Numbered from the stretch's first letter, positions 16,259 through 64,000 are shown. The stretch is DNA of 64,000 bases from Marsupella aquatica (GCA_973895155.1 OZ316892.1:6927251-6991250), one strand, 5' to 3'. The notes: a model not told the origin generated them from the letters alone. Numbers and translations are program-made.

Positions 16259-16307
16259 CTTCGTTGGGCAGATGGGCACCCACTGAAAAAACGTGCGGGC
16301 CCCCAAC

Positions 16308-20550
<4,243 letters not shown>

Positions 20551-21017
20551 TTTTTCACACTAGTTTATAAAAGTAATGCGAAACTGCTAATGTTTCCATA
20601 AAACTAGCGGTTCATTCTGTTGGCCTTGCTTGGCCATTAGAGCATCTCCAGCAGTAGGCCTGTAACCCCCAAAATCCCCACATAGCGGAAATTCGCGGAG
20701 AGCGTTCCCCGCACTGGCCCCTATCACTAAAAGATTAGTGGTCGGGACCCTCTTCATTGACCCTGGCTGCGGGATTGGCAGCTGGCAGACAGTGCTCCCA
20801 TCTTGGCCTTCCCCCATCGATGTTCTCAAACAATCCATATGTCAGGAGATATATCCTAGTTATGCATGGAACCTTAACCAGCCATGGTGCCAAGAGACTT
20901 TTCACGTCTTTGTTTGTGAATGTTTTTCACTCCAATTGTAGAGGTCAAATTTTATACTCTGATGTTGAATTGTCTCTAACTGGTTTTCCCATGCAATTCA
21001 AGGTGGTGTTCACTTGA

Positions 21018-22611: not shown

Positions 22612-22943
22612 TGTTGAACTAAGACGTCATTCGCAACGACCATACAACCATGATTCATTCCATGCACACGTAGTCGACACAATCTCTACGTGGTTCACCT
22701 TTTCTCCAAGGCTATGTCCACACGAACACTCAAGCTTTACTTCAAGAGTAGACGAACACACATGCTCTCTCTCTTCCTCCTGTTGCTCTATTACAATGAG
22801 TAAGCACCACACACCAGCGGCTTACACTAGCCCTGGTATATACAAGGTCACACACGACTAACCTAACCTCAGCTAAGATCCTAACTGTGGTTAGCCTAAG
22901 TGCCGTAACCTATGAGTCACAAGACTAAGAGCAATCCTTAACA
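22612..22943 (-). repeat. 3' LTR of copia element
   Basis: TGTTGAACTAAG...CCTTAACA; 4 transitions seen relative to the other LTR. Confidence 0.95.
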
Positions 22944-22957
22944 AACTCCCCCTTGAC
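22944..22957 (-). other. Polypurine tract of copia element
   Basis: Minus strand reads GTCAAGGGGGAGTT immediately before the 3' LTR. Confidence 0.85.
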
Positions 22958-23146
22958 TCTAGTCTTGGGGACTGCAATTTCTGCTATCCATATGAGATAC
23001 TCAGCGGGAATTCTAGACAATCACCTAAAACCATAGGTGTCCCCCTAAAAACTATTTAAGGTTAACTAAGGGTTAACTAGAATTAAGCCGTAGCCATAAC
23101 AGGATTGAGTAACCCATATACAGAAATTACATATTGTTAAGTTACT

Positions 23147-26100
23147 CTACTTGTGCTGCAAATGCAAAACTTGCAAAGTAGCACGATGTCTTAAGTAACT
23201 CTCCAAAGGAATCACTTTGGTAAAAGCATCAGCCGGGGTGAGCTTTCCATCAATCTTGACTAGCTCAAACATTTTATCAGACACTACTTGCCTAATAAAA
23301 TGGTACTTGATATCAATGTGTTTCACCCTGCTATCCATAACCTGGTTAATAGCTAGGTGAAGCGCACTTTGGCTATCACAATGAAGAGTCATTTTTCCAT
23401 GCTCCAATCCCATCTCAGTGACCAGCTTATCCAACCAAATTGCTTCCTTTGCTGCTTCTGCTGCTGCAACATATTCTGTTTCTGTAGTAGACCAAGATAC
23501 ACACTTCTGCAAGGTAGATCTCCAACTTATGCATCCTCTTCCAAGAGTAAACCCATACCCAATCGTTGACCTCCTTGTTTCCAGACAGCCTCCGTAGTCA
23601 GAATCTACATAGCCAACCAAAGATTTGGTTTTGTTTGATCTACTATCAAACAATAGACCATAGTCTATTGTGCACTTAAGATACCTGAGAATCCATTTCA
23701 CAGTCTCCCAATGTACCTTCCCTGGATTTGACATGAATCTACTCACTTTGCCCATTGCTAGGGCTAGATCAGGCCTGGTACATGTCATCAAATACATTAG
23801 ACTGCCCACTGTCTTCTCATATGGAACCTTAGTCATCAAGCCTCTCTCCACTGGATCCGTGGGGCAGAAAGCCGATGATAACTTGAAATGTGGAGCCAAA
23901 GGAATACTTACTGGCTTACAATTTTCCATGTTGAATCTTGCAAGTACCTTTTCAGCATACTTGCCTTGATTCAACCACAACTGTCCAGTTTCAAAGTTCC
24001 TCGTAATCTCCATACCTAAGAACCTCTTGGCTTTCCCAAGATCCTTCATTCGGAATTCAGAACTCAATTTTGCTTTGAGTTTGTCAACCTCAGTTTGATC
24101 CTTAGCCACAATCAACATGTCATCCACATAGAGCACCAGAATGAGCAAACCAAACACACCATTCTTGACTGATTTCGTATACACACAAGGGTCATACACC
24201 ATCCTAGTGAATCCTTGTGCAAGCATGAAATCATCAAACCGCTTGTTCCACTGCCGAGGAGCTTGCTTCAATCCATACAAGGACTTAAGTAACCTGCAAA
24301 CTAAACTCTTTTGGCCCTTCTTCACAAAGCCCAGTGGTTGCCTCATGAAAATTTGTTCCTCCAAGGTGCCATAGAGAAAAGCAGTAACAACATCCATTTG
24401 ATCTAACACCAGATAAAAAAACACAACAAGTTGACACAAAATTTGTATCATGGAATATTTGGCAACTGGAGAGAAGACCTCATTGTAATCCACTCCCTTC
24501 TCTTGAGTGAATCCCTTGGCAACAAGCCTTGCCTTGTATATCTTGTCTCCTTCATCTGAAGAGTTGTCCTTCAGCTTATAAATCCACTTGCTATCCACCA
24601 CTTGTTGATCACTTGGCAGTTGCACCAGCTCCCATGTTCTATTGTCACTTAAAAGATTGCAACTCCCTCTGCATCGCTGCATTCCATTCATCTTTCTCGT
24701 CTGAAATGCACGCCTCATGATAAGAAGAAGGTTCTCCTTCTTCCAAGATCAATGCTCTATCATCATCTTCAGGTGCAATGTCAACATCATCTAACCTTGA
24801 TGAATCTGTCCATTGTCCATACCTTGTAGGAGCTCAAGTAGTACGTCTTGATTTTCTAGCTGATGATTCTGGTTGATCTTGTTCTAATGGTTGAATTTGA
24901 GGTATTCCAACAACAACTTGCTCCTCTTGTTCCAATACCGGAACCAGCTCCATTCTCGGAGCACCTCCTTCATTTATGTCATGAAAACTCTCCTGACCAA
25001 TCTCCCCCACAACATGGTCCAGGATAGGAGATTTACCTTTGTCAGTACGGGAAGCCTGAGCATTCTCCCCCTCCTTTGATGATCTGGATTCATTAAAGGA
25101 TACATCTCTACTGACAAGCAACGTACAAGCTTCTGGATCCCATAGCCTGTATTCTTTCACACCTGGTTGATAACCAAGAAAAAGACACTTCTTGGAAGTA
25201 GAATCTAGTTTAGATCGATTCTGCTTAGGTGTGAGAGCATATGCATCACTTCCAAAGACTCTCAAAACCTGATAGTCTGCGTGCCGTCCATACCTCATTT
25301 CAAACGGCGTTTTGAAATGGATTGCACTTGAAGGAGAAAGATTTACCAAATAAGCTGCCGTATTTATAGCTTCAGCCCAAAATTCATGCGGTAAACCTGA
25401 TTGGCTCAACATACTCCTCGATCGCTCCAATAGTGTTCGGTTTAGCCGCTCACAAACACCATTCTATTGAGGAGTATAAACTGTCGTGAGATGACGAGTA
25501 ATCCCTTGCTCTGCACAATATAGTTCAAATTCACTTGAACTGTACTCCCCGCCGTTATCTGATCGCAGATATCTCACCTTGGATCCAGTCTGATTCTCAA
25601 TTTGGGCTTTTCACTTCTTAAAAGTGCCAAAAACTTCAGACTTGGCGTGTAGAAATGTGATCCACACATACCGTGAGTAATCATCAATGAACGTGACATA
25701 GTACAATTTTCCAGAAAGTGAGGGAGTTGGGGCTGGACCCCACACATCACTATGTACATACTCAAGTATAGCTTTGGTATTGTGAGTTCCAACACCAAAG
25801 GTTCTCCTGTGCTGCTTCCCAAGCACACAGTGTTCACAAAAATCTAGCTTAGTAGATTCCAAATTAGAAAGAAGTCCTTTCCTGCGAAGTACCGCCAAAC
25901 CCTTTTCACTCATGTGTCTCAATCTACAGTGCCATAATTGAGTCATCTCGCCTTGAGATCTAGTTACATTGGCTTCTTCACAAATCACGTTGCCCTCCAA
26001 CAAATATAGATTCCTGTGCCGCTTACCCTTCATGACAACCTTGCCTTCGGTTGACACTTGAAGAATACCATCAGCAGAACTCCACCGACATCCATTTGCT

Positions 26101-27301
26101 TCCAGCATTCCAAGAGAAATCAAGTTCTTTTTCATGTCAGGTATGTGTCTGACATTACTCACTGTTCGCACAGCTCCATCAAACATCCGAATTTTCATGG
26201 ATCCAATTCCAACAATTTAACAAGGATGATCATTCCCCATCAACACGGAACCGGTTGATATTGAGTAAGAAGTAAAAAACTCTTTCATACAACAAATATG
26301 ATAGGTACAGGCACAATCTAAAATCCATTCATCACCGTTGTTACTGGATAAAATGCAAAGGGCAACATCTGGACTTCACAAGATTTCATCATCAAGCAAG
26401 TCAATCATATCAACATCAGTGGCTGCGTTTGCTGATGGTTGATGAGACTGCTTGACTCGACAGTCTCATTTCATATGGCCAGGCTTGTTACATTTCCAGC
26501 ATATAATTGGTTTCCTTTCTAGAGATTTCTCTCTAGACCTGGATCTAGACTTAGACCGAGCCTTCTCCTTGCCTCTATTCTGTGAGGGGTATGTTTGTGA
26601 AAAGGACCTATTTCACCAATCATCTACTGTTGAGTTCTCCCGCGGTTCACATTCAATGCACTGCCAGATGAAGATGGTGTCTGGGCATGACCCAGTTTCT
26701 TCTGTGCATCATCTGACAGCAAAGAGCTTACCACCTCATCATATGAAATGGTTTTGAGATCTCTATACAAGAGAACCTGCTTCAAACCTTGATACGATGG
26801 GGGTAAGGAACTGAGAAGAAGCAATGCCTTATCTTCATCTTCCACTCCCTTGCCAAGATTTGATAAATCTACAGCTAGGTTGTCGAATTCATCCAAGTGA
26901 TCTCGAAGCTTGCCTCCTTCTTTTAGCCTCAAGCTCATCAAGAGAGACTTCTTGTACAACCGATCTGAGGCATCCTCTCGATAGTACTTCTCTCTAAGGG
27001 CCTTGAATAAGGATACGCAATCCTCGTAGTCGTCCAGCTTCTTAATGATATGCGGCTTCAGATACAGCATAACCGCATTCACAGCAATCACTTGCTCTTG
27101 CCTCCATTTCCTCAACGGGATCTCCTCTTCACTGCTAGACTCCTCGCGAGTCGATAGCAGATGATCTAGGCCCATAGCACGAAAAATTCCCTTAACCTGC
27201 TTCTCCCATAACAAATAATCTGTGCGCCCATCATATTTTTCCACCTCAAACTTGACACCGCCAAACTTGGATGCCATCGTTGTCCTTCCAACGTTCTCCA
27301 C
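23147..27301 (-). pseudogene. Copia gag-pol polyprotein interrupted by stops/frameshifts
   Basis: Gag 26624-27301. Zinc knuckle CWKCNKPGHMK*DC at ~26460-26500. Protease WILDCACTYH at ~26300-26330. GAG-pre-integrase/integrase (WHCRLRH, VHSDVWG, FIDDYSR). RT (KARLVAKG, QMDVVTAFL, LYVDDML) and RNase H in 23147-24718. Confidence 0.93.
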
Positions 27302-27971
27302 GTGCTATTGCTGTGCTGCTCCCTATATGCTTTTATCGCTTTTTTCTTCCTTCCTTCTCGTTGACTCAAATCCAAATCACGAAAAAATGTCGTTTTTCGC
27401 AACTTTCCAAAAAACTTGAAACTTGTCACCGCCACTTAGCCCACCAACCTAGCAAGCCAACGCTGAAATCCAAAATTGAAATCGAGTTCCAACGAAAAAC
27501 TTTTTCACGTTTCGGTCGGGGTGGGTAAAACTCAAAAATTCTCCCCCGTTTTCACCACCTCAGGGAATAAGAAAAATTCCAAGTACCACCCATCGTCGGA
27601 AATGAAAATCGAGTGGTGCACCGCATTGCTAGCTTCAGTGGCTACGTTCTCGCCAAAAAAGATCCGAAAAAAGTTACTGTTTGGACCTTGGAATCTTTGA
27701 CTAAAGGCCAAAAAACAGCTCTCTATTTTTTCGGTATATTCCTTGGACTGTGCAACAGGTCTCACAGGGGGCCGTTCCCCCTGTCCAAGCGATTAATTTG
27801 GTGGGTCACCGGGCCCGGGATGCCGCTTAACCAATGAGGAGCCTGGAAAGGATTAAAAAACTGGGCCTAAGGAGGTTTAAGCCCCTTAACACAAAAATAC
27901 TGTCTTAAAAAAGGCAGTGCACAAGGGGCCGGGGAGTAAAAAACCGAGTCGAAATGGGCAGGGATGGAGCT

Positions 27972-28112
27972 GCGACGGTCGGGACCTCCGGGACGTCCGG
28001 GACGTCCGCGTCGGCTGCGATGGTCGGGACGTCTGCGACGTCCGTGCCGGCCGCGACATCCGAGACGGCTGTGACGTTCGAGACGGCCGGGGCGTCCAGG
28101 ACGTTCGCGATG
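27972..28112. repeat. GC-rich 9/18-bp degenerate tandem array in the copia 5' leader
   Basis: Repeating GCGACGGTC/GGGACGTCC-type 9-mers. Confidence 0.8.
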
Positions 28113-28931
28113 GGAGTATTAGCGAGGAGGAGGAGGGGGTCGCCGACGGGGTATTGACAGGGGTGCAAGGGTCAGGAGGGTGTGTATACACACCACAAAA
28201 AAGGCCCTATTCTAAGGCAAAATATGCACAAAAAATAAATTTGTTGGGTTACTCACACTGCCGTTATCACTTTACACCAGATAAAGACTAGTTTTCGACG
28301 GGAAATGTTACCGAATTGCACCGGCACCGTTTGCAACTCTAGCAGAGTAAAAAATTCCCGTCACGACTCCTTCACTCCGCGTCAAGTGTCAATCTTGGAC
28401 TCAAAACGACCACTGCATCGCGATATCTCCATTGAGTCGTTGCACTTCCTGTTTCTTCCTCCGAGTCGAACGCAACGAGAAGTAACCCCGCTTCAGTCAA
28501 AAGAAGACTCCATAGCCAGTCAAAAACTCAGAACGGCTCTTTTGCTTGGTACATCGCACTCACTACACCCTCGATAGCAAACCAGCTACCGAAATGATCA
28601 GCTTTGCCCGATCTACGATTTGAGCTAAAGGTTGTGACGCCTCGCGCACCACAAAGCTCACACCGTCGAGAAAATGATCTCAGTTCCCCCCCAAAAGAAC
28701 CGTCGAAGAAAAAACCGTCGAACACGAATCACAAAAAATCCAGAACGACGGAAACGTGAATTCCTCCGCACCACGAACTCCGTTCAGAGATTTCTTTGCA
28801 CCGTCGGAAAGCCCTTGCCTCGATCTATCCGTTGAGCCCAACACCTCCAAGTTCCATGCGACAGAACTCCGTGAAATCCACCAACTCTAACCACTGGAAA
28901 AACTGTCACCAACACGTCACCTCCCAGGCTT

Positions 28932-28943
28932 GCTCTGATACCA
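28932..28943 (-). other. Primer-binding site (tRNA-iMet)
   Basis: Minus strand TGGTATCAGAGC, 2 nt after the 5' LTR. Confidence 0.93.
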
Positions 28944-28945
28944 AT

Positions 28946-29277
28946 TGTTGAACTAAGACGTCATTTGCAACGACCATACAACCATGATTCATTCCATGCA
29001 CACGTAGTCGACACAATCTCTACGTGGTTTACCTTTTCTCCAAGGCTACGTCCACACGAACACTCAAGCTTTACTTCAAGAGTAGACGAACACACATGCT
29101 CTCTCTCTTCCTCCTGTTGCTCTGTTACAATGAGTAAGCACCACACACCAGCGGCTTACACTAGCCCTGGTATATACAAGGTCACACACGACTAACCTAA
29201 CCTCAGCTAAGATCCTAACTGTGGTTAGCCTAAGTGCCGTAACCTATGAGTCACAAGACTAAGAGCAATCCTTAACA
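28946..29277 (-). repeat. 5' LTR of copia element
   Basis: Direct repeat of 22612-22943, adjacent to the PBS. Confidence 0.95.
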
Positions 29278-31179
29278 AAATGGTGGCACCTAATAAAAAA
29301 GTTACACACCTGTAATCTTTCTTCCCGACAAGAATTACATATAGGGTAATGACGGCTTGGTCCTGGGGTTATTGGTCTATAACCCTGTGACCAGAAAGTG
29401 AAAAAATGCTGACAAGCTACCGGAAGTTTTTCTGAGCTTTGTGAGAACAGGTTATAGAGAGTAACCCTAGCCCCAAACAGTCATTATTGTAGGTAATACC
29501 TGTCCAGAAAAAGATTCTCTGGCAAGATTTTTTGGGAACCCAATTATGGAAATAGTGGCACTTACTAGAAAAAGTTACACACCCGTAACCTTTCTTAATA
29601 ACGTGCTTCTGTATGAATAGGATAATGTCCTGGTTAGAGGGCATTGTGGGATATAATGCCCATAACTAGGACATTAATGTACATAAAAACTTGAGTGACT
29701 TTTCGATAACAAACAAGAAAAAGTAAATCCTTGAAATAGAAAATTCAGATTAAAAGGTCATCCAATAAGTGATTGCTATGAAATTGGCCAAAAATATACG
29801 TTCTTGAGTTATTAGATTCTATTCATAGATATTTTGTTCGTATCACCATATAAGATTTGGTTATCATCTTGAGATCTTGACTAAATTTAAATCTTTTTTT
29901 GTGTATGGTAAAACTATATTTACGGGCCCCACTAGAGGTCCCTTCCAAAATTCCTGGCACCACAGCGTGCCACGTCAAACCGCAACAAACAAGACTCGTC
30001 GATTTTGTGAATCAAACTTATAGTTTTCATTCATGTTTGTGTCAATTTGGGTGTAAATGTTGGGACGCCGTGCCGTAAAAAGAAAAGTAAAAACATTGGA
30101 AATGCAAAGAGCAAGACGGTTAAAACTGTCACTATGTAACCGTTTTAGTTACATTTCCAATTTTAAAACTTAAATTCAAATATTTATAAAAAGTATTTTC
30201 CATATAATAAATAATGACTAATAACTAACTTGATAACTTCCTTGTTAAACCGCAACTCCCGGTATGTAAGGACCTCTCGTATTGTACGGCCATTAATGTT
30301 GGGAAGAGCACATAGAAACCCAGGATCGGGGAGGAGGAATGGTTGGAATTTTGAAAGTTCATCAAATTTTATACTCAAAACTATTTACTCATTCTCAAAA
30401 CAAAAAATACCCAGTCGTAGATCTCATTGAGATCTTTCTTTTGCACCCTAGATCGCCTTCTAACATGGATGAATAAGATTTCTAGAGGCATTACAAAATG
30501 GACGACAAAGATCGTAAAATCAACAAAATCGACGACTAGGAAGGCTTGGATTTGTTTAATTTTTTATTTGAAAAATATTAACCCATTTGCAAAGCGGACA
30601 CAACCCATCCATAGATCTATTTGAGATCTTTCTTTTGAGCCATAGATTGGCCATTATGATGGATGGACAAGATTTCCGGATATAAGAAATGGAGACGGCT
30701 CAGATCTATTCTTCCCCCTGATTTTATTAGCCAAAGGATACACGAACTAATTAATTTTTACTTTTATGGAATGGTGTTTTGTATAATCTCCTCCTCAAAA
30801 AAACAAGCACATTATGGAGAATTAATGCACTCAAATAAGTCATGAAAGGCTTTACGAATCCAAGGGAGTTCCGGACCATTTGTAAATTCTGAGGAGCGCA
30901 ATTTGGCTTTGGATGGGCACCTCTAACGAGCGCGTTTTTCAAGACATCGCTGTGTGCTGAAATCAGTGTTCCCCAGTTGAACGAGGGCCCTTTCTTTCAG
31001 CTTTCAGGGAACGTCCTGAAACTCATCGGTAGGAAAGCTTGCCCCCGAATCACCCGCGATCGGAGAATCGTTTCTGTAGCTGGATTGCTTCCTGCCGAAA
31101 GGCGGACGGACGGGCGGACAACACATTTGCTGGGGAGCCCTCTCTTCGCTCGGGAATGTGATACGGGACGGACTTCGGT

Positions 31180-44099: not shown

Positions 44100-45809
44100 T
44101 GCTCTAGTCTTTCTCTCGGTTTTTCACAAGGATCCTCCCACCACAATCCAAATCAGCACTCTCTTTGGATTATTTTTCTTCTAGTGTGGGGATTTCAATA
44201 ATCGAGAATCCGCTCGATCAGTAAGATGGCTTTCTTTGCTTAGCTTTGCATTCTTTGCAGAAGGTGTCACAAGCGGCAAAACATTCAAACCGTAGGGCCC
44301 TGTGCTTTAAGTTCCTTTATAAAGTAGGTACTGTAGTCATTTCACAACTCATTTCACAGATCGTGAAATAGTTTATACTAAAGAGCATTTCATATTTTTG
44401 AGAATTTTCAGTTTACATGTAGTACATACAATTATGATAGTGAAGGTTCAATCCCCCCTCCTCACAGGAGTGTGGAGGGTATATGTGTTTGGGTGGGATG
44501 GGTTTTGTGGGTAGTAGATGGGAGTTCTGGTAGTCCAATTTGCGGCCCTGATTTAATACTTGCTCCTTCCTAGTGCAGATCCCTGTTGGGTCCAGTGAGG
44601 GTTCACCCTGAAATGGGTCCCTTAGAATGAATGTATGTACTATTGGGGTGGGGAGAGACTACTAAGTGTTCTTCCTCATCTCCATGCAAGACACACAAAA
44701 AATGATTATGATAGTGTATAATTAATGCCCTTTGGTGATTTGAAGAATGCACTGTGTGGATTTGGGGAGGGAGTTATGAAACTTCTACTCTACTTTTAAT
44801 GAAATAATAAAAGTAGAAAATCTCTCAGGTCTTAAGTATATAATGCCCTGTTGAGAGGGGGCATTCTCAGGGCTTCATGGTCCACAATGCCTGTTACTGG
44901 GATGTTACTTTGTAGCAAAGAGTGTTTCATATTTTTGGAAAAGCTTAACAATGTCATCTCATTAAGTCAGCACAGGGAGCTGTCTACTTTTCTCAGAAAA
45001 GACATCTTAAATCAAGATCTTAATTATGTCAGTGGTTCATACCTATCTTGACTGTGGGCCAGGAAGTCACCTAGTGTGCCAGCCTGATCCCTGATGCCTG
45101 GTACCGGTGCGGATGCTCTTACACTTGAGTTCATCATTCCTAATGCTTTCACTATTTTCATAAACACATATTATTGTTAAGTCATGGCGTTATGTACAGG
45201 TCTAAGCACTATAACTAAGTAAGTTTAACCCTGACTACTTCTGAGGTCAGTCATTATTACTTATTCTTGGTTTTTCCTTAACCTTTTCACCGTAGGTTTT
45301 TCCATAACCTTTTAATTGCTCACTTATTGGAGTTTAATATGTAGGAATTTAAATCATTCTGAAATCCCTACTAACCACACTAAAATCTTAATTAGCCTAA
45401 CCATATGAAGTGTTACTCAAACTCGGAACTCCTATGCTATACTAGTTCAATACTTAAAAAAAAACTTTAGCCTAGTAGATAGCTTCAATCCAAGGTCTCA
45501 TAGTGTGTAGAAAAACTTATGGAAAGTGTACCTCCCAAAGTAAGCAAGGAGTCGCCACCTGACCTCCTTCCCAGATCCTATTTAAATCTGGGAAGGAGCT
45601 CCATACATCCTATGGCTTGAGCAACATAGAAGGACTTGTCCGAACATCTTGTGAGATATGTACCTCACGCCTCCATGCATCCTATATCTTAAGCAACAGG
45701 ATGGTACATAATGGCCAAGCAAGCCCAACAGATGAGCTGTGAGGAATCTTGAAAACACTAGCAGTTTGAACAGTGTTCTTATAAACTCCACTGTCTATAT
45801 TGACCCTCC

Positions 45810-51048
<5,239 letters not shown>

Positions 51049-52689
51049 GCTGAACTGAATTTCAGTTCAGTTTTGTGGTGGGCCCCGAAAATGCATCCAG
51101 TAGTTCAGTTTTGCTACAATGGATCCGTAGGCACAAGATTCCACAAAACATATGTATACTGCTTTTTGAGTCCAATATTATTAAAAGATGTTATCACACT
51201 ATATAGTCAATTCCCGCCTCTGGTTTTTCTGTGTTTTTCCGTCCGTCAGAAATACTCACTTGAATGGACAACGCTCATAAAACAAAGTTTTTCATACGCA
51301 AGCCCTCTGCAAATAAAAAAATGCACTGACGTGACACGGAGAAAAAACAATGTTACTTCATCCTTGGTGGCAAGAAGAAAAACACTATTTCAAAGTCACC
51401 AGAAAATTTGTACTCCACAGATATTGTCAATTTTCATCTCAAATGAAATAACAGGATTTAATGTGAATGCTTACATGGGAAAAAAAAATTCACTCTTGAG
51501 TATTTATATTTGTCGTAATAGTGTTTCTGCCCTGTCCATTTGGTGTGTGTGTTTTTTGTTGCGGCTGCTTGTTTTTTGTTACGCATTGAATATGCAGTGC
51601 GTGTAATTTGTTTTTTTCCAATATGTTGGTGTGTGCTTTTTACACGTCAGTGTTGCTTGTTTTTTTTCAATATGTCACTTTTTTGTCGCCAATAATGTTT
51701 GTTGCGTGTTTTTTAACATGCTTCTTGGTGCATGTTTTTTTACGCATTCTGTGATGACCCCTGTCCCTTGCGGGGTTTCATTAGGGGGTTACCCTGTCTC
51801 CAACGGGATTTCATTACTGGATTAGACCTACATGTCAGAAATCTTAGGGTCTCCCTTTCAATCCTCATCTTTCGTGAGAAACAACACTCTTCTTTTGCAC
51901 TATATCTCTTCTTTTTCATCAAGGGAACAATGTCCATAGTGGCTTCTCCTTTTTAGCATCAACGACAACAATTTGACAACATCTTTTTATTTTGCTTCTA
52001 TCAAGCATATAAGGACATGTGTGAAAACCTCTACAATACAACAGGGCAGCCACTTAATCTCCACAAAATTCAAGAATTGAAAGTATACCTACATAAGATG
52101 GGCCAAACATTGGACATATTGAGTTGCACTCCATTACTCTATTTTGTTTATATATTACAGCATCAGATTCTATTAAAAACTTGAAATGCTCTATTTTTAC
52201 ATGCTTATGGGATAAATTCATAACATCTGCAAACAAAATTTAACCAACTATAAGATTGCATATAAACAAACACAAAATTTGGACATGAGATGCAATGCAC
52301 CAAATCTTACTTATAAATCTCCCACTACAAGCTACAGTTGGGACCTAGGCTTTTAGAGTGAAGTCTCTAGACAGTAACTCCATGGCTCATCATGTGAATG
52401 AGAAAACTGGTGTCTATGATGTATGTCATGTCAAATGATAATCATGACTGTTTTTTGTTATAATTTTTATTTATATTAAAAACTGATCTCTATGGCCCTA
52501 CCCTATTATATGTGCATATATGTGCATAAGTGGATTGTGGGATAAACAAACTGAAAGTGGGTTGTGCATAGAAAACAGTATTATGGTATGTTATGTATGA
52601 TTATTAAAATGATGATATGCATGATAAATTTTTTATCATTTCATTAACCTCTATATTTTGGTGACATGTTTATTGTCCGCCCCGCTATT

Positions 52690-52719
52690 CACGTTCAAAG
52701 AACGGGTAGTCGGGGCTAG
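52690..52719 (+). mobile_element. Probable Helitron 3' terminus
   Basis: Hairpin CGTTC-AAA-GAACG(GG), then about 10 nt, then CTAG (52716-52719) followed by T. AT-rich sequence lies upstream; 5' end not identified. Confidence 0.55.
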
Positions 52720-52769
52720 TAATGGAAAAATCTCATTCCAACACATATAGATGTTGTAGTTGTAGTTGT

Positions 52770-53713
52770 TTTACTTTTATCACTTCTCAATGTGATGGTC
52801 CTCAGCTGGTTGTGTAGTACTGCAGGTCCAAGTTTCCTATTTCTTTCAATTTGCTTTCTCAAAGTTTTGAACCAATCAAGGTCACAATAATGAAGGTATC
52901 CAAACATTTTGAAGTAGCTGTATGCTTTCAAAGTAGAATTTGACACTGGAGTTCACTTATACACCATTTGTTTCTTGCCTGTAAGTTACAAACATCTAAT
53001 GCTCTGGTGCTTCTATGGTTTGAGATTGTTGACACTCGTCTAGAATCACTTTGTACCATTATATTTGCTTTAGGCAAGGAGAGAATTTTTCCTTTGGTTT
53101 CTTGAGTTTTTGCGTCACAATAATTTTGGGAGTTAACTTGCTTTTTTCTCTGTGTTAGTGTGTCCACACTAGAATGCACGACAATACTGGTAATTAGGAC
53201 ATTTTATTGCTCCAAAACCTTTGGATCCATTGACATTTGTTGATGTGCCTTTTGAGTAGTTTTAGTGATCATCTCATGTTGTCATTTGAGTCATAACACC
53301 TCTTGGACAAACAATATTGGTCTTGTTTGTAAGTGGTCAATTGGTGACAAAGAGAAAAATCAGTTGAACTATTTTCCCCATTTTTTTCCCAATAAATACG
53401 TTTCCATGCACAAATGTAGAGGAGACGAAAATTGTGAATTACATAGCACACAACACATGACTTACATAGTGTACAACACATCCTGAAGGCTAGCTTAATT
53501 GAATACAAAGGTCACTAAAAATCAACAACTAAAATGAGCATGCAGTATTACCTCGTCATCTGCCAAAATGCCTCCAAAAACTTCCAAGTTGCTAGATTTC
53601 CTTGATAGCATGTTAAATATATTTTCCCTTTGGTATTGGTAGCCTTTAAAACTTTGTATAAGCCCATCTGGTGGACTCTCTTCTCCAATAAAATGTTTAT
53701 AATCAATGTATTC
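52770..53713 (-). pseudogene. Degenerate SNF2 ATPase N-lobe, RAD5/16-like CHR27/CHR28 (FRG)-type
   Basis: Exon 53552-53713 reads EESPPDGLIQ...YQRENIFNML...GGILADDE|GT. Then MGKIVQLI (motif I), IVCPRGV (Ia), WYKVILDEC (II), ARNKWCIS..TP (III) and YSYFKM...LRTITLR, with stops and frameshifts. Confidence 0.75.
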
Positions 53714-54336
53714 CTACAATGGTCATATCATAACAGTTAGCCTTCATTTGTGGGGTATAGCGACCAAGACAGCAAACAGGCAAACAGCAAATACTTTTCC
53801 TGTTTGCCTTATGCTGTTACCAGGAAAAAACATCTTGTACCAGGGGAAAGAACACACAATCAGGAGTTTAGAATTGTTTAAGTTGGAGTTAGTCCATTGC
53901 AGTGAGGGAGGATACCTTGTCATGAATCGCTGAACCACATAATAATTGAACCTCATATCCCAACACAAACAAGGGGGAGCAGACATAAAAATGTCAAGGA
54001 ATGTGCACAAAAATGGTAGGTCCCACCACAATCGGCAACAAAATATATAAAAATAATACAAAATGAATGCAGCCCAAAACTTTATGGTATTATATGGTCC
54101 AAAATAAAAGCGAACAACGTCTTGACTAGCACCTGGCGCTATCTTATCGGTATTTAAGGAAACAAATAGTTGGCACAACACGATGATATTTAACGGTGTA
54201 GCCTAAATGACAAAATTATCAGCGCCTGGCGCTAACAAAACATGACGCGACATAAATAACACTTTTCCGTTGACATACGACAAAATCAATATAACCATTT
54301 GGACCGATAATAAAACCTACATCATCATGATTCATG

Positions 54337-57300
54337 CTATAAACTATGAGCATTTTGCCTCTCTAATATGAGCCGAACCTCTCCAACAGTGAGAATTGGT
54401 TGGCTGGTCAATGTAGATTCCTCAACGTCTAGTTTGAAAACGGTAAGGAAAATCCAATACAAATGTTTGCAAGGCATATATGGATTTGCAAGGCATATAT
54501 GGATGTTTCCGAGAATGTCACCGGTAGAAATCCTCACACGAGCAAGTGGGGAAAAAGCAAATTTGAACAAAGTAACAATTTGGCGTCCGCATATTTTCAT
54601 GCGTTTGCACCTTAAACTGCTTTCCCCATGCATTCCCAATCGCAACATCCCACTCTCCCTAAATGGACATCGTCTCTTTTTTTGCAGACGCAATTATGTT
54701 CATGTGACCCTGGGTAAGATTTGACTGAGGAACCGTATTCCTCCCATTCCGGCTTCGGAGACGAACATTGGGTTCGAGAAGATTCACATGTTCTAGAAAA
54801 ATATTGACATTGATTCGAAGATCAAAATCTAACGGGGGTGTAGTTGTATGTTCATTTCCGTGCACTAGGGAGATTCCGTTGTCAAGAAGATATTGCAGCT
54901 CATCTTCCGAAACATTTGTCCCTTTCAAAACGGGAAGAACATCCGAGAAAGGGGGCAGGTTCAATACACCTCGACGAGGGCGGCTTTAGTAACATGTATT
55001 GTTTGGGAAAAACCAAATCATTTCGGTTATGGGTTCCCCCCTGAAAATGTCCTTTGACAACAACGCCGATAACACCATGTGGTGAGGGAAATCCAACTTT
55101 TTTCATGCGATTGCGACACTCGTCTCTTTTGGAATTATGGGAAAATGATCCGTTGCACTGAGGACCAGCGCCAAATTTTGAAGTTCGACGTAATTGCCAT
55201 GCAGTTGGAGCAACCTTGGTCTCACGGACAGGACACTCTTGTAACGGTTGTTGAAGCACGGAGGGAGCAGTCTGGGGAAGCCTCGTTGAACGCGTTCGGT
55301 CTCGAGCAGGAGGGGTATTGAAATTGACATCTTCTCCACCGCCCGAAATGTCACTTCCAGACAGATTAACAACAGGATTAACTTGAGGCGTGGGGCCAGG
55401 GATAGCATCAAACGTCGTGCGATTAAGATTCTTCCTTTTCATCGATCTAGTATTGGGCGAGGTGACAAGGATTTTATCATGCCTATGGGAGTCTTGTGGC
55501 GAGATATTCCCAGATGCATGTCCTTTCCTCTTCAAAGATTTGGTGACAACGTCTCCATTGAGAGGTGCACGTCTCTCCAAGTCAAACTCGGCAGCGTTGG
55601 ACAGTAGCATATTCATTGCATCTTCATACAACTTGGGGGAGCCTGCCTGGTCCGCTGATCGGAAAGCAAGTTCCCAAATTGTGGGACCTTTTCCTCTATG
55701 CAACCCTTTCCGATACGCAGTGTAAGCAGCAACCTGAGAAATAGCTCAATTTTGGTCCATTTCACATGCCTCAAAGAGTCCAACCTTTTTCTTCATTACC
55801 CATGCTTTCATACCTGCGTGCACGGACTCTGATCCTGTACAATTAGGAATCTTAGCCCCTTCTTCGACACTCATGCGCAATTACATAGAATAAATTGTTT
55901 GTTACGCAACAAGAAAACACTAGCGTCGGGCGCTAGTGAAGTGGAGTCTGTACCTAGAAGTAAAAACTGGCACTGTCCATTAAGGGACAACTTATTGCGT
56001 CGTATTGTGTCATATGACAGTTTGAATAAATGATAGCGCCAGGCGCTAGTATTAAAGGATGCTATGGTATTGTAATATTTGAATATGGATACAAACATTT
56101 TGTAATGAGAATATAGCACAGTAATACCTAAAGAGCGGAAAGCAAACTAAGTAAACTAACTTACCAAACGAATAAAATTTCCCCATTGCCTCCACCTGAC
56201 GACCCACCATGAAATCCAACTTTGGAGCATCCGAAGCTTCCCCGGGACACAGTTACCCAACTGCCACCACAAATCAATCTCCCTTGAAATTCTGTAAGCC
56301 TCTACAAATGTGGGGGCATTTCGCATCTTATCCCAAAGCCTCCGATGCTCTCCTTGACTCTCTTCAATCACTCCTTTAATTGAATGGCGATGGAAGGCTT
56401 GGTAGAAATGGAATGCGTCAGTTCGCTCACGCTCAGGGTTTGGATGCCCTCCAAAAAAGACATTTTGGACTGCCAGCCAACCAGCTTGAGCATTGTCCGC
56501 CATGAATCCATGAATAATCGGATTTTCTAATCCATTCTCCTTGGACACCTCAATCATTAGTCTCCAAGCCTTCTCGAACGACTCTGTATCCTCTGCTTTT
56601 AGTTCGCAGGTAAATAAGGTACACAGAGCGCGATAGTTGTGATCGTAAATATGCGCACTAAAAGTAACCCAGTCTTTTGTGAGTCGTTTCATCACATCAA
56701 AACTTACCCAAGAACCTTCAAGACTTCCACCAGGTTGCATTTGTCTCAAAAGATCGACGCCTGATCCATGACCGATCAAAGTCATCTTGAATATGTGAGG
56801 ACGGTCTTTTTGAGACCCTTGACCTGGTAGGAGGTACCTGTGGAGGAAAGGCATGTTGATATTTCTTTGATACCGAACAAGAAAATCTAGTTCACCTTGA
56901 CCTTTCTGGTCCTGTCTAACACTACGAAAGAGGGACGCAAACTTCTGGGGTGTGGAAACTACCATGAGCGACTCAAATATCTCAGTTTCTTCAATATCTT
57001 GAATATCTTCCACACTTTCACACAAGGACTTTACAAAGGACCCTGTCGCCACATTTTTTACACCAGCAGGGGTAAAAATTGGATTTCCTTCCAATTTCTT
57101 TTTGATAACCTCCTCAACAATCTTCTCTGCGCTCCAAGAAAACACCTTTCTTGAAGGATGGTTGTGGATCCCCATATGAATTGCCAAGCGGGACATGTGA
57201 GTACAAGTTTCTGAGTCAACTAGAACCTGGGGGTACATGTAAAATAACCTTGCTGGACAGGATTGGACACAAAACGGAACTTGATCACAAAATTGGCAAA

Positions 57301-58237
57301 CAACTCCACCTTCGTCAATGAAGGAGCCAACACGATGTTGCCCGCCAAGTTTGGGGGTTCCACCCCAGGCCTTCTGGTTCCTCCTTTTCTTCCGTCGAAA
57401 ATAGTCGCAAGTATTATTCCTACACTCAATGGAACCAGTGCACGTTACTTTACCAAATTCCCAATATTTCTTGGGATGAACATTAGCTGATGTAGGAAAT
57501 ATTCTGGTCCAGATGTAGCAATCCTTCGACCGGTCCATGTCGCGTAGACGTGACCCCTTTGAAAGAGCTCCCGTAGGAGGCAACTCGAATACAATATTTC
57601 CATTGTATTTCTTTGGCAAACAGCCGACTTGTTCATGGCAAAAGTCCCCAGCCGCGATGAACCTTGAGATTTCACTGGAACCAGTTGACTTGAGAATAGT
57701 ATCCATTGCACTTCTCCGATACACAATGGAATTTTTGGTAAAAACTGCTCTAACCTCTTGTTTAACAGGGGTAACCTCCTGTTTAACAATTGTGTGAGGG
57801 GGTTTAGCACTAGACTCAGGCAAACCAGAAGGTCCATCATCGTCGCTATCTAAAAGAAAGACAACATCAACAAAGGGTTTGGATGAAGATGGGAGATCGG
57901 ATGCGACTGGTTTTCGAATGACAATAGAATACCGAATTCCTGCATTCAGGTGCCAAAAACGAATCCCGTCATCAACATCAAAAGAAGTAGTGAAATTAGA
58001 GGCTTCATCTCCGTTTCCCTCCTCCAAAATGTCCTCAATGTCATTCAAATCCAAACCAAAGCGCCCACAAAGATAATTCTCACTAACTTGCTTGTATACG
58101 TCATTGGTCGACAATGGAATGGATACAAGGTCACCGGTAGACGGACGCGTCAGAACGATTAACCTCGACATTGTAAGATCATCCAACCCAAAAACACTCA
58201 GTTCACAATAATGAATGATGTCTTCGAATGCACACAA
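54337..58237 (-). pseudogene. MULE-type DDE transposase with GCM/WRKY-like zinc domain and C-terminal SWIM finger, disrupted
   Basis: 693-aa ORF contains TCTGSIECRNNTC...CQFC...CPAR...HMGIHNHP (GCM/WRKY-like), SFDVMK (D1), FMADNAQA (D2) and DAFHFYQA (CxxH-like). After the intron (donor 56164) comes SESVHAG (putative E, ~55828). C-terminus PTCSCEDF...PCKHLYW (SWIM). Stops at 55746, 54986, 54659, 54518 and a 19-bp duplication at 54466-54503. Confidence 0.8.
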
Positions 58238-58311
58238 TGGTATTCATAGTGAATAATCCGTTTGTCAGAGCCGTTAGAATACGATAGAATCACTACCGGT
58301 CGAAAGCACAT

Positions 58312-59130
58312 CTGACACAATAAATATTTTTTATCGTTATGTCAACAACATTTACACTAATGAGCCTAAGATGTCCGTTTCCGAAGAGCATAATCATGTT
58401 TATTAAATCATCTTAATTGAGTAGCGTCGGGCGCTACTCAAACATCCTCACTCCAACATGGACCCAAAATGGTGCAATATATGTTTAGCGCCAGGCGCTA
58501 CTCAAACCCACACCATAAATTGTGGTATTAAACTGGAATATTTTATCCGGGGTTTCAGAATAAACCCTAATGTTTGTAGCTATTTTCCAAATATTATCTA
58601 AAATTTTACCAAAATGTGCCCATTTAATATTAGCGCCGGGCACTAATTTGAAACAGTAATCATGACATTCAATTAAGGAAAAATATTCAAAAATTGTATT
58701 CATTTTGTTTTTTATTTTATACTTCAGGGTCAATGTTGGCCTAACTTAGGGAAAATTTAGGGTTTAAATATTGATCGTTTTGGGTAGCGCCAAGCGCTAC
58801 CATTGACCAATATCAGATTTGACCTAGGAATATAGATTAAAATCACCAAACTCTTCTTTAACGGTCATATTCAACGGTAATGTTAGGTCGCGTAACGTTG
58901 AAGATATGCCAACGGTATTCTAACAACTAATCCAGAATTGACAAGTGGCGCTCAGGAGAATGTCGTAAATAGATATCAATGTAGCGAGGGGATAGTTTAG
59001 AGATGATACTCTCCCCACCTCCCTTGTCCGCTATATTTAGGTTCCGTTTTGGAGGTTCTTCGTGCAAGAATTCTCTAGAAGAAGTACAGTACGAATGAGG
59101 TACTCATCACGATCGTGAAGCACTTTGTGT
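58312..59130. promoter_or_regulatory. Putative bidirectional promoter between transposase and accessory gene
   Basis: AT-rich spacer between head-to-head genes, carrying 4 palindrome copies. Confidence 0.5.
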
Positions 59131-62100
59131 ATGCAAAACATGGACCCTCTCCCCACCACCTCGCATGGGTATAGTGCTAACGAGCAGAGAGAGCAGATCC
59201 ATTCCCAGACATCCGAGTGCTCGTTTTCTGGATCTGTTTACAGTCGTCGTGTGACACGGTCTACAGCATCCGAAGATCCTGAAACAGTTGCGGTAGTCAC
59301 ATTTTCGAAGAGCAGGAGAGCAAAGATGGACGATCTCGACACATACGTTGTGGAATTTTGAGGAAAACTGTCACTGACGATGTTCGACGTTATCTCCAAG
59401 CACGTTATGGTGTTTGGCAAGGATTTTCGAGGGCACGACAAAGACCCCCCAAGGATTCCAATGTGCCGCTTGGTTCACATGGAAGTTGTCTGCACCTTAT
59501 AGAAGGGAAGTCCTTCAATTGAAAAGTTGAAGGACTCTTTTCGTAGCACAGGATACAACTCAAAAATTGGAATGTTATTCTATGTCCAGCCGGCAGATTC
59601 GAATGGGAATGTCCAGACGTGTACTCCAGAAATTAGAGCGACATGGGACCCGGTGTGGGTGGTCGAGAACGAGAAGTTTGAAGCTGAATGTGCGGCCAAT
59701 CCAGACTTCATGGTGTTACAAGATAAGATGTTTTACGTTTTTGACGGTAACCATCGACTTTACGCATGGTCGATCGTTACGAAAGAAAATCCAGAAGATA
59801 GCAAGTATCACCCGCGTGTGCAATGTACTATCTTCAAGGGTGAAAAGGGATCTTTGATTGAAATTGAGGCGGCTATACATACTGTGAACCAGTAAGTCTA
59901 TCTTTGAATTTCACCTATCCTTATCTTTTATAGTGTAGTTTTCACTAGCGCCTGGCGCTATTGACTGACAAATTCTTCTGTAGACTTGGACAGGCCGTGG
60001 TGGACATCAAGTATTCCTGGATACTTGATGAAGACCGAATTAAGAGGATTTTGTCCAACGATCTAGAATACTACAAATCAATCATCGATGGGGCAAACTT
60101 CAAGAAGTTTGGGCAGGTGATGCAAAAGACTCGAAAAGGATCATGGTATTCCAAGAAAATGCCTCAAGAAGCACTTATGTATATCTTATGCGAGAATAAG
60201 ATTAAATCCTATTCTTGACAATTCAAGAAGGACATGGAGTCGGCCACCGCTCAGGGAAATCCTTGGTCTCGGGAAGAGACATCCAAACAACATGCGGTCA
60301 TGATGAAAGAAGCAACGAAGGGATTGGGCGATCAAGGTCTCAAAGATCACTCCCTTGTTGAGTCCTGAGTTTGAAGACTTCATGACAACCTGTGCTGAGA
60401 TGTATCCGATGACAGAGGTGAACAAACGCGAGAAGAAACCGGATGCGGTTGTTTGTACCATGGATCGTGCCAGGTTATTTACAGCAGTCTCCGCCCTTGA
60501 CCCCAAATTGAGGAGCACTTTGTTAGTAGCGCATTGCACGCCAGAGCTCAGGAAGCAGTTCTTTCATCCGCAAAGCATTAGCGATGACCCTGTGAAGCAG
60601 TGGTGCCACACTTGGCAAACTTGGAATAGCGTGGAAGGAATTGCCATTGGTATGCTGCAGACTATCCTCCAGCAAATCAGTGAAATAATTTCTTCCAATC
60701 GATTGGAGGAATGGAATTGTGAGTCTTATGATTCACTCGTTGAAATAGTGTGCAATGATTTCAAAAAATTTGGGGATGCAATGAAAGGTAAGTTTTTCAA
60801 TACGACGTGGATGTCCAAGTACCCGGACAAGGAAGACTACACACTCAAGAATCAAAAGCGAGCTAAACGATATGTCTATCGTTTCTTCATGCACATGGAG
60901 ATTGTGAAGCCTGACTATTTTTGGGCTTACACAGCTGCTTTCCAGAATTGGGTCATCTGCGCAGATTGAGACATTTTGGCCGAACTGTATCCGATGTATC
61001 CCGCTGAGGGTATACTTCCACCAAGGAAATTGTCCCAGTGGGAGAGAATTCACTGCCCTTGGTACCTTGACACCGACAGATGGGATTCTCCTTTTGACGA
61101 CACTGAGAAGGATGCTTTCCATAAATTGTCTAAATCCCAAGTTCCGAGACAATTTATCTCAGACATGAAGCAAGGAATTGAGGGGGACGTCAACTCGTCG
61201 ACGACTGAGTTGCAAAAAAAATGCGAAACCACAGTGGTTCATGTTGATCGAAGCCAAAAACCAAGAGCCAAAGCCAAGGCGGATGCCCCTGTGGCAAGTG
61301 CTAGTGCCAAGTCTGGGAAAAAACGTAAGCTACACCTCCTTCTTCCGACTTCCTTCTTTGTTAGCGCCTGGCGCTATCATGTGTCGTAAGTTTAATGTGT
61401 CATATTTCTCAAAATTGATGTGGGTGTTTGGTCAGCGCCTGGCGCTAACACTTTTTCTGTGCTTGACACCGTTTTTTGGTAGGTGGTCAAAAATCTGATG
61501 CCGCCACGGATGACACAAAAGTTGATGCAACACCAGAAGTCTCTGAGGCCAACACTGGTGCCAATCCAGACCCCATCACCCCCGTTGAGAAGGGGAAGGT
61601 TATAGTTCTTGTGGATGCTACAAGCACAAAGAAGAAGAAGAAGAAGAAAAGGACCATCGATGCCTGGGAATCGTCGCGAGATAATGCTTCTGGGGCCGGT
61701 ATCCAACGGGATGTGGGGACTTTCAAGACTAAACTCGGAAGACATTGTATGGTCGAATCAAGCTTGGCAGAATTCATTGATAGTGCATTTAGTAAGGAAG
61801 AGAAGCCAGATTGGGTCTCAGACGCTGAGAAGTGGGGTAAGGATTTGATCAAATCGGGGTGTAGAGATAAAGGAATCATTTGAGGTGGGAAGGAACGATC
61901 ATTTGGGGTGAATGCGGGTTTCATCTATCTCCCAACTGGTTTGAAACCCACAATTGTTGACCGTCGGGTCCCAAAATGGAATGTGACAGATCACACAGCA
62001 GCCGAATCATTTTTTCAGGCGATGGATCCTTTCCTTTCCGATGACGGCATGCTCGCTATCTTATACTCGGATGACCACGATCAGATTTCCCAGGTTATTT

Positions 62101-62857
62101 CTGCATGTCAGCAATCCAAGAAGTTTATGTGCATCAATACGCACAATGTTTTCATGTCTGTCCCAATGTACAGATCCAAGACAGATGTCCAGGTAAATGT
62201 TCTCTCTGAGTAGAGCTATACTAGCGCCCGGCGCTACTCTTTCTTTCTTAGTAGGTCTTCTCTCATGAATAAGAGATTTTTAAAATCCAATTGGTTTGTC
62301 AACTTTTGCAGGTCTTCACTCTTAGACTAGATATATTTTGTCGAGTTTCTTTTAAAGGAAAGGTCCCAAAGGATCCAAGATTCAAGCCGTTATCTAGCGC
62401 TGAAGATCCTTCAATCTCAAACCTTATTGGGCTACAATCTTTGAAGGAAGATCATTGTCCTGAACTCTATTTTACTGGGAATTCCCGACTACCGGTTGGT
62501 TTTATGCAAACTATCCTTGAACTCTTTATGATACCTAAGGATATTGTAATTGATTGGACCGTCGGCTCAGGTAGTACGTTCATTGCTGGGGATTACTCAG
62601 GCCGTTTTGTCATCGGGTTAGAAAATCGTCGGGAGTTTGTTGAGACCGCTTCGAGGATTTTTTTGGATCTCATTTCTCCCAAACCTTTGGAGACACAACC
62701 TCCCCCTCCTCAAATAACCGGACAAAAAAAGAAAGATAGACTTAGATCTGTCCTCAACTTTGATTCGGATGAAGATGATGGGACGTCAGAAGATGATGGG
62801 ACGTCAGAAGATGATGTTCTTGAGGATGTCAATGACGGCGGGAAAGAGGAAACCTGA
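59131..62857 (+). pseudogene. ParB/Srx-like domain + beta-class amino-DNA-methyltransferase-like protein, 4 exons, disrupted
   Basis: Introns 59892-59983, 61325-61482 and 62193-62311 (GT-AG, frame-preserving). N-terminal RIPMCRL...EKLKDSF..GY...FYVFDGNHRLYAW. C-terminal LPVGFMQTILELFMIPKDIVIDWTVGSGSTFIAGDYSGRFVIGLENRREFV. Poly-Lys tract and acidic tail. Stops at 59359, 59500, 60216, 60967, 61881 and one frameshift near 60320. Confidence 0.72.
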
Positions 62858-64000
62858 CATGATGGGTCAACGGAGGATAGCGAAGAGTCTTCCGAGTAAT
62901 TTTTGTCTCTCGTAAGCTCCTTTATCCTTTCAATTGTTGGCTAACCATCAATTCCACTGGTTCTATCTGTTAAGTACTTACTTCCTCTTTCTCTTCCGCT
63001 TCTCTTTTGAGCAGGTCAGAATGGAACCAAAAAAACGGTTTTAACTCCGGAGGAAAGTGGCTTGAAATGTAATCATCACTCCCAAGAAGCCGTTTGTGTT
63101 GCCATCATACGCTGAGAACGTCGCAAGGAAGGTAGAGAAATTTAGAACGCTCTGCTGGGAAACAAAAGGACTTAGGCTTCTTAGGGGAGTAGACAGGAAG
63201 TTCATGAGGAACCCCTATGTAGATGATGTTTCTAGAAGCAAGTATATTGATGATGAGGCAGAGTCGACCGACAGATCTCATAGCTCCAAGAATGAGAGCT
63301 CAGAATATGACACTGAAGGGTAGCAATTTTCTCCTCTATCAGGTCAAACTTCCTCCCAACTGTACGAGTATGCCCTTGGTTTTTGTTAGCATCGGGCGCT
63401 ATTGAATTTATTAAATATGAATTGAGTTTGATGGAGGTTGCCCCTTCCATTCAATGGTTAATGTGGTCTTTAGTAACGTCCTTTGTGTGGGTTCCTTTCC
63501 TTGTTTAACTAGCACCCGACGCTCCCCAAAAAACACGTTGGAAGTTTCCGTTTGATATTTGTCATTTCCGCCATAGTGTCATTTGGCTTTCAGTCGGCGA
63601 CTAGTACCGTCAAGAGGACCAATAACGGGAAATCCAAGCCCCTTATAAACATACTATTGTTTCTTTCAAAGTCCATTGCTCTCGTTCTTCTCCTTCTTGA
63701 TTCCATGGAAGGCCAGTGTATCGACGGCCCACAAGAGCATATGTCAACTTCCAATTAGATGGTTTCCGCCAAGATCCAGATCGTCAGGACGCTGGGATTG
63801 ATGATGACTGTCACTCTTCGAGCTAGGACATTGTACGAGGAAGCACCCACCGGGAGTATTAGCGCCTGGCGCTAGTTACAATTGCACTGGAAACTTTAGT
63901 GTTCCTATGTAGCAATATTTGTACATCAAGGACAATATGTTTCACTTAAATAAAAAAACTCGGGTTTCTTTTCTTTCAATTTCCCGTTAGAAGTTATGAC

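Follow-up and report, generated by a model that had tools for sequence, protein, structure and literature searches.

Positions 53752-64000 of a 64,000-nucleotide stretch of the Marsupella aquatica genome (GCA_973895155.1, OZ316892.1:6927251-6991250; hereafter the window) hold the left and central part of a Mutator-like DNA transposon of high copy number, here in decayed form, in which a transposase gene stands beside a spliced cargo gene with a ParB-like and a methylase-like domain and in which 15-bp palindromes are dispersed (Table 1). We see about an even chance that a dimer of the cargo protein binds its own element's palindromes and that the protein's role is that of a self-specific regulator or anti-silencing shield, and not of a normal methylase. 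The window copy itself is dead, and its value is as a map of the family. ParB-methylase accessory proteins of transposons were put forward as a class in 2025, on the basis of algae, with neither a target site named nor an experiment reported in the accessible text (PMC12477816). The present family offers a precise candidate site, an intact liverwort protein (KAL3677308.1) and a prediction about catalysis, and the published hypothesis thereby becomes directly testable in a land-plant lineage.

Table 1. Features of the transposon copy, in window positions
Feature	Position	Strand	Remarks
Transposon, left and central part	53752..64000	.	right end past the window
Left terminus	53752..53810	+	starts GGGGTATAG; internal inverted repeat, arms 53779-53787 / 53800-53808
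Transposase exon 1	56165..58171	-	ATG 58171, open for ~669 codons
Transposase exon 2 (approximate)	54347..55880	-	SESVH, SWIM-like pattern
Cargo pseudogene	59131..63320	+	ParB-like N-domain, helical middle, Lys-rich linker, methylase-like domain, acidic tail
Cargo exons	59131-59891, 59984-61324, 61483-62192, 62312-62896, probably ~63017-63320	+	
Cargo introns	59892-59983, 61325-61482, 62193-62311	+	three, GT-AG
ParB/Srx-like domain	59440..59891	+	with DGNHR
Methylase-like domain	61900..62680	+	split by intron 3
15-bp palindromes (n=15)	54127..63874	.	match TAGCGCCNGGCGCTA, dispersed
Palindrome starts 1-8	54127, 54220, 55921, 56034, 58422, 58486, 58631, 58785		
Palindrome starts 9-15	59946, 61362, 61433, 62222, 63387, 63510, 63860		

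The repeated unit, its two genes and its palindromes

The extent of the element was read from the contigs of four runs (two studies, one of which may be where the window comes from), which were aligned to 46000-64000 and compared by summed depth. Over 46000-50807 the summed depth was 16-149, 141-287, 21-56 and 54-154 in the four runs, and over the 17 bins from 53813 on it was 3,705-10,409, 4,474-18,587, 312-929 and 971-2,957; this is a tens-fold step in all four runs that spans both genes and the spacer between them, in a measure that by the tool's own caution is not a copy number. The step is located in the bin 53748-53778, and dissimilar loose ends lie before 53752/53753. Because the two coincide there, we place the left end near 53752. 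The earlier note, made from the sequence alone, had set the element at 54127..64000; the element is real, and its start lies ~375 bp further left. No inverted match to the left end was found within the window, which ends before the element's right end, and 24 of 65 loose-end rows gave no sign of a long terminal inverted repeat (TIR). Left of 53810, some copies part from the window sequence and continue in a similar CAAACAGG-type repeat, which suggests subfamilies with different subterminal repeats. A high-depth contig in two of the four runs joins 56055 to 63379, both of them next to palindromes, with 33 other letters between; the joint, where only 22 letters match on one side, is possibly a deletion derivative and was not used as evidence.

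The transposase gene lies on the minus strand, head-to-head with the cargo gene on the plus strand. Its first exon holds a Cys/His zinc-finger region, the first two catalytic aspartates (in SFDVM and FMADN) and a DxxH motif (DAFH), and its second the catalytic glutamate (in SESVH) followed by a CxC...CxH SWIM-like pattern near 54560-54460 that is read across a frameshift. The motifs were read by eye, and we take the Cys/His region to be a GCM/WRKY-like pattern. Ten metagenome loci encode related transposases, one of them (L001) being 59% identical in its best segment. Seven homologues of exon 1 (50-70% identity over the region searched) share the Cys/His finger, the two aspartates and DAFH, and exon 2 has tblastn matches to L001, L003 and L004. 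A Pfam scan returned nothing for exon 1 and was blank over most of exon 2, and no transposase relatives were found in viral contigs. In a Foldseek search with a low-confidence model of the transposase (predicted template modelling score 0.32), the top five rows were ISCth4 (E 1.3e-4 to 7.9e-3), presumably a transposase of the IS256/Mutator superfamily, and Hermes came next at 0.023. Motif alignment and predicted structure thus support a Mutator-type transposase (DDE, C/DxxH), as the earlier note had named it. Exon 2 is damaged by a stop at 55746-55748, by frameshifts and by a 20-bp duplication near 54480, as seen in a three-frame reading and in comparison with L001.

The cargo gene comprises ~1,130-1,230 codons, 1,133 of them up to 62899 with three introns; the likely last exon makes a weak match to the tail of a homologue (P0031, E 0.006). 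Exons 1-4 hold six in-frame stops and one frameshift, an extra base near 60320 that comparison with contigs found missing from other copies. Both genes of the window copy are pseudogenes. A further frameshift suspected near 59360 was dropped, the frame there being continuous, with stops. The spliced gene of ~1100 codons that had been described, with its DGNHR motif and poly-lysine stretch, is present in all these parts and broken in this copy. Between the last palindromes, positions 63590-63870 of the plus strand may be the remnant of a further open frame.

A scan with TAGCGCCNGGCGCTA at up to three mismatches found 15 sites, all of them within 54127-63874 (null mean 0.1 per 10 kb), and none in the remaining ~54 kb of the window; at up to two mismatches there were 14 against 0.02 expected, a number reached by 0 of 100 shuffles. 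All 15 lie outside the modelled exons, which make up 71% of the element. For a non-coding share of 29% this gives p ~1e-8, assuming uniform placement with composition not modelled and with 63321-64000 counted as non-coding. This agrees with the ~15 palindromes reported before as marking the non-coding parts. Six are intronic, four lie between the two genes and five downstream of the genes; four of the five modelled introns hold one or two, and four sites fall within cargo introns. At four imperfect positions of the window's palindromes (54131, 58642, 58793 and 63514), nearly all the depth of other copies carries the consensus G, a result drawn from 40 of 1,316 difference rows. Since other copies carry this G, the sites of the family are cleaner than those of the window copy. 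The changes in the window copy are G-to-A, as decay of 5-methylcytosine (5mC) would give.

L001 holds three palindromes in the same transposase intron, with the TAGCGC half-site, a 2-bp spacer and one mismatch in one of them. All three have longer (TATTGC-extended) arms than those of the window, and one centres a perfect hairpin with 29-bp arms (1172-1231). A CCWGG within the palindrome, tried as a possible methylase target, was dropped as a feature of the family, the spacer of L001 being 2 bp.

That both genes and the spacer form one repeated unit is supported by the depth and by the sharp left edge. The pairing recurs at a metagenome locus with a distant relative (L010), where a decayed ParB-like gene (independent E-value, iE, 4e-21, minus strand) faces, head-to-head and ~5 kb away, the relic of a transposase on the plus strand (iE 4e-12); the methylase part of this ParB-like relic was not detected. 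The decayed element there is interrupted and flanked by three copies of another repeat (6673-7100, 11210-11570 and 16280-17030 of L010), which is recognisable by its palindromes, a long one at 6673 and a shorter at 16737. We consider it very improbable that the two genes are separate nested or adjacent repeats, or that the palindromes serve as hairpins in RNA or as signals related to splicing, without a protein partner on the DNA. The right end, the TIR and a target-site duplication (TSD) are not seen in the window, and no contig bridging both genes in another copy was found in the four runs, as would fit separate repeats; against them stand the occurrence of one motif throughout the two genes and the spacer, the continuous depth and the pairing at L010. 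As for RNA, each palindrome can form a stem of 6 bp, and three folded intron pieces were no more stable than their shuffles (z -0.66, -0.78 and -1.28). The z of -6.9 of a fourth folded piece simply reflects two palindromes that it contains and that pair together.

It is also conceivable, and in our estimation unlikely, that the palindromes are bound by the zinc finger of the transposase, for autoregulation or for pairing of ends with short or no TIRs, while the cargo has another role or binds DNA non-specifically. The Cys/His region is conserved, and L001, the sole relative with the motif, was found through its transposase, its cargo being out of view. According to the available part of a 2026 preprint on Arabidopsis AtMu1, the transposase alone activates cognate copies in a sequence-specific manner (10.64898/2026.08.24.746577). 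Against this explanation, the palindromes are interior and dispersed, the first of them 375 bp from the end and four of them in introns of the cargo, and perfect two-fold symmetry is known to suit a ParB-type dimer. Moreover, the inverted-repeat arrays of red-algal Plavaka elements adjoin a ParB-bearing gene and are proposed to be self-binding sites, according to the portion of the Bostrychia study at hand (10.1101/2025.02.11.637652).

A ParB-like domain fused to a methylase-like domain

Searching with a profile of the cargo protein's first domain, we obtained 344 representatives at E<=0.001 and a list of 150 of them. Thirty relatives were looked up, long ones first, and the 16 with an organism were from Riccia sorocarpa (ten) and Adiantum (six). 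Riccia locus tags mark 13 loci among the relatives looked up, a multiplicity such as a repeat would show. The Riccia homologues are full-length, and those of the fern Adiantum are partial. KAL3677308.1 of Riccia sorocarpa (P0163, 1,207 aa) is colinear with the window's gene (26.4% identity over 1,089 columns, E 1e-75). The presence of homologues in a liverwort and a fern suggests that the cargo has been kept over the long term, and we count this in favour of the palindrome-binding reading. No ParB-domain relatives were found in plasmids or viral contigs, and a word-index search with the methylase exon gave no longer relative.

The ParB-like assignment of the first domain is carried by a model of 1,024 residues of the Riccia homologue KAL3677308.1, with a predicted local distance difference test (pLDDT) of 85-98 over residues 11-170. 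In the VIA comparison it fits Caulobacter ParB (7bm8_A) with Z 9.2 and a root-mean-square deviation (rmsd) of 2.2 over 99 aligned residues; ranks 1-13 are all chains of the ParB family, and the top eight rows of a Foldseek search are ParB/Noc. Six residues are conserved among 66 aligned domains (arginine 55/60, glycine 63/66, asparagine 66/66, histidine 62/66, arginine 57/66 and a late asparagine 62/65), and the DGNHR, upstream arginine and late asparagine positions presumably correspond to the ParB boxes of the nucleotide site. Pfam gave weak matches to DUF1015 and DndB (two members each of the 66), and PHROGs gave one ParB-like match (E 0.001) in one of three ParB-domain proteins scanned. 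Taken together, the model and the conserved motif make the predicted ParB N-domain fold of the cargo family well supported, in line with the ParB/Srx-like domain seen earlier in the sequence.

The second domain reaches PF01555 in the window at 33.2 bits (cut-off 26.7), covering model positions 164-219 of 221 only. A profile of four rows aligned with a Synechococcus phage methylase (AIX44018.1) over 195 columns (probability 95.4, E 1.8e-8); the profile is shallow, and AIX44018.1 was chosen because it was the longest among 48 weak records (best E shown 0.01) from a phage tblastn with the Riccia methylase domain. Because these matches are weak, no donor can be named. Motif IV comes before motif I and the S-adenosylmethionine (SAM)-binding motif I (DWTVGSGST in the window) is kept, as in beta-class methylases. 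The C-terminus is thus amino-methylase-like, as had been proposed.

Motif IV does not match the canonical (D/N/S)PP(Y/F/W). It reads YLPT in the window (61926-61937) and, in six homologues of which two are nearly the same, DLPT, DLPT, DMPT, DMPS, DFPI and DVPF; an aromatic residue is found in one of the seven sequences and the first proline in none. The alignment sets DLPT on a DLPY of the phage protein, so that an annotated methylase also lacks the first proline. In the bdelloid enzyme N4CMT the tyrosine of SPPY was modelled to stack the target base, according to the accessible text (PMC10406627). Methylase activity is doubtful because motif IV is degenerate, six of the seven sequences being without the aromatic residue; to judge from the motif, one may doubt catalysis in the liverwort-like clade and consider it possible in a fern one.

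These observations bear on an explanation that we regard as rather unlikely, in which the cargo would be an active amino-methylase whose ParB part targets the palindromes and whose N4-methylcytosine (4mC) or N6-methyladenine (6mA) blocks or competes with host 5mC silencing. An active, self-modifying version is also a hypothesis in the part of PMC12477816 that is accessible. It draws on the alignment of the whole domain to a phage beta-class methylase, on the first aspartate and one proline of motif IV, which Riccia keeps together with motif I and the acidic residue after it, on the DVPF of a fern homologue and on the horizontally gained 4mC methylases that function in Marchantia, as stated in the available portion of 10.1101/2021.02.12.428880. 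Beside the state of motif IV, it is opposed by the N-terminal half, which alone matched nothing in Pfam or the PDB. As to the idea that the element marks its own copies, a methylase-like domain is indeed present, and a methylation mark is doubtful.

Predicted action, contrary results and related systems

In the palindrome-binding reading, the nuclear protein of an intact copy would bind the palindromes of the introns, the promoter region and the flanks and keep the family transcribed or shielded, the window copy being a passive target. The two-fold site would be recognised by a dimer of the cargo protein of intact relatives. The ParB N-domain would bind nucleotide (cytidine triphosphate, CTP, by analogy) and may allow loading and spreading along the element, and the methylase-like domain, its SAM pocket kept and its catalytic motif weak or dead, would more probably bind DNA or flip bases than write 4mC or 6mA. 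The outcome would be that related copies are protected or activated in trans, as by VANC for VANDAL elements. The sites are two-fold symmetric and lie solely in non-coding parts, and the half-site is kept in L001, all in favour of this reading. A bolder version, which we think unlikely, would make the protein a eukaryotic CTP-dependent clamp of the ParB type in liverwort and fern Mutator elements, loading at parS-like palindromes and sliding while a repurposed methylase fold blocks host 5mC silencing. If true, a eukaryotic transposon would have taken over a bacterial chromosome-segregation mechanism to counter epigenetic silencing, and there would be a mechanism for the spread of anti-silencing from short motifs over kilobases.

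Several results weigh against the palindrome-binding reading. Beside the missing bridging contig, only two of the ten transposase loci (L010 and L006) have enough upstream DNA, and L006 has no cargo within ~2.3 kb upstream. The palindrome was not found in the nine transposase loci other than L001, L010 among them (several of these are without that intron), and the spacer is 3 bp in the window family and 2 bp in L001. The ParB fold was predicted on the Riccia homologue. Nothing in Foldseek reached E<=0.001 with that model (best E 0.14), and a wide search independent of Foldseek had KorB (Z 7.8) and PadC (7.3) at its top, under the tool's caution line of 8. The earlier note had looked to profile and fold searches for recovery of both domains; structure comparison gives ParB and Pfam gives the methylase, but the Pfam ParB family matched 0 of the 66 members and a profile search of the PDB returned no ParB chain. 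Four VIA alignments reach residue ~378 and the ParB/Noc central domain at an rmsd of 7.3-7.9, and a helix-turn-helix (HTH) of the ParB type is no more than hinted at by the model. The methylase part of the Riccia model (pLDDT <50) is too poor for a fold match, and the aromatic residue of motif IV is kept in one fern homologue.

The arrangement was put forward in the earlier note as a candidate new system, a claim that does not hold, since a fused ParB-methylase gene opposite a transposase is already published for Sola1-1_Ec32 of Ectocarpus. According to the accessible text (PMC12477816), this element has a 1,104-aa gene that runs opposite to its transposase gene, on the other strand, and combines a ParB-like with an N4C/N6A methylase domain, and the authors propose that the accessory protein binds and modifies its own element. 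The fused domains, the size of ~1,100 aa and the opposite strands are shared with the present element. Unlike Sola1-1, which is from a brown alga and has a Sola1 transposase, 21.5 kb, a 282-bp TIR and a 4-bp TSD, the present element has a Mutator-type transposase; in the same part of the paper no binding site is named and motif IV is not discussed, and the two were compared by description. In the red algae, PAG2 and PAG3 join a PF01555 methylase to SET and ParB to a 2-oxoglutarate oxygenase as separate genes of Plavaka (EnSpm) elements; the carriers are Plavaka, Mutator and Zisupton elements, with homologues on Mutators of Chondrus, as given in the portion at hand of 10.1101/2025.02.11.637652. 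Here, by contrast, one gene carries both domains, and single, dispersed palindromes take the place of the red-algal tandem arrays. New in the present case are the Mutator carrier, the homologues in land plants (liverwort and ferns), a candidate site that is defined and an active site that has degenerated. The literature search found no land-plant description of such a transposon, and Repbase and most subscription journals, which were outside its reach, may hold cases.

A parallel in function would be VANC of the VANDAL elements of Arabidopsis. VANC carries Pfam domains of its own, and the Pfam scans of window pieces and long homologues gave only N6_N4_Mtase at or near cut-off, with no protein of the VANC family. 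In the accessible text of PMC5735166, VANC21 localises to introns, intergenic and terminal regions of its own element; it binds a short motif and brings about hypomethylation that spreads. The present element is like VANDAL in its Mutator-like carrier and in sites within its own non-coding parts; it differs in the protein, in that VANC motifs are of 8-9 bp and non-palindromic, and in that the function of VANC has been demonstrated, whereas here it is predicted from sequence.

The sites of bacterial ParB, Noc and KorB are palindromes of 14-16 bp. With these systems (ParB/parS, Noc/NBS and KorB; 7bm8, 6sdk, 7ol9, 8qa8) the cargo family shares the N-terminal fold, a GxxR-type motif and palindromic sites, and it differs from bacterial ParB in its sequence (about 10% identity), an N-domain insertion, the lack of a ParA partner and the fusion to a methylase-like domain. 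The likeness to beta-class methylases (AIX44018.1, CcrM, DpnA, N4CMT, MpDN4MT1) is in the order of motifs and the SAM-binding region, and the difference is in motif IV, Dx-P-(T/S/I/F) here against (S/D)PPY. N4CMT and MpDN4MT1 are described as host enzymes with SPPY in the available parts of PMC10406627 and 10.1101/2021.02.12.428880. Dam-type methylases of chlorophytes and chytrids, which belong to a different methylase group, are fused to a ParB-type HTH (PMC4738411, as far as its accessible text goes), and ParB goes unmentioned in the accessible portions of PMC6431247 and of the Marchantia 4mC preprint (10.1101/2021.02.12.428880).

Other features of the window

The gene content of the window (a spliced gene like that of an E3 ligase, two centrin-like genes and a copia element), taken with the homologues of the cargo, would suggest a land plant that is not a flowering plant. 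Left of the transposon, an inverted duplication pairs 16309-19615 with 47701-51046 (88.8% identity over 3,403 columns) in the region of two genes that we take from their translation to be centrin-like, and further pieces of it lie at 19640-20639 and 45709-47608. A separate high-depth repeat spans ~52010-52720, its right edge marked by many dissimilar loose ends behind 52720, where a GC-rich hairpin is followed by CTAG and then T; we presume this edge to resemble the 3' end of a Helitron. On the minus strand, 22612-29279 is a Copia-type long terminal repeat (LTR) retrotransposon with 334-bp LTRs that are 98.8% identical and with fragmented gag/pol frames. Also on the minus strand, ~1400-10520 is a spliced gene that combines RING, kinase-like and ankyrin units with repeated HERC2-like ones and which by recognition we take to resemble the plant E3 ligase KEEP ON GOING.

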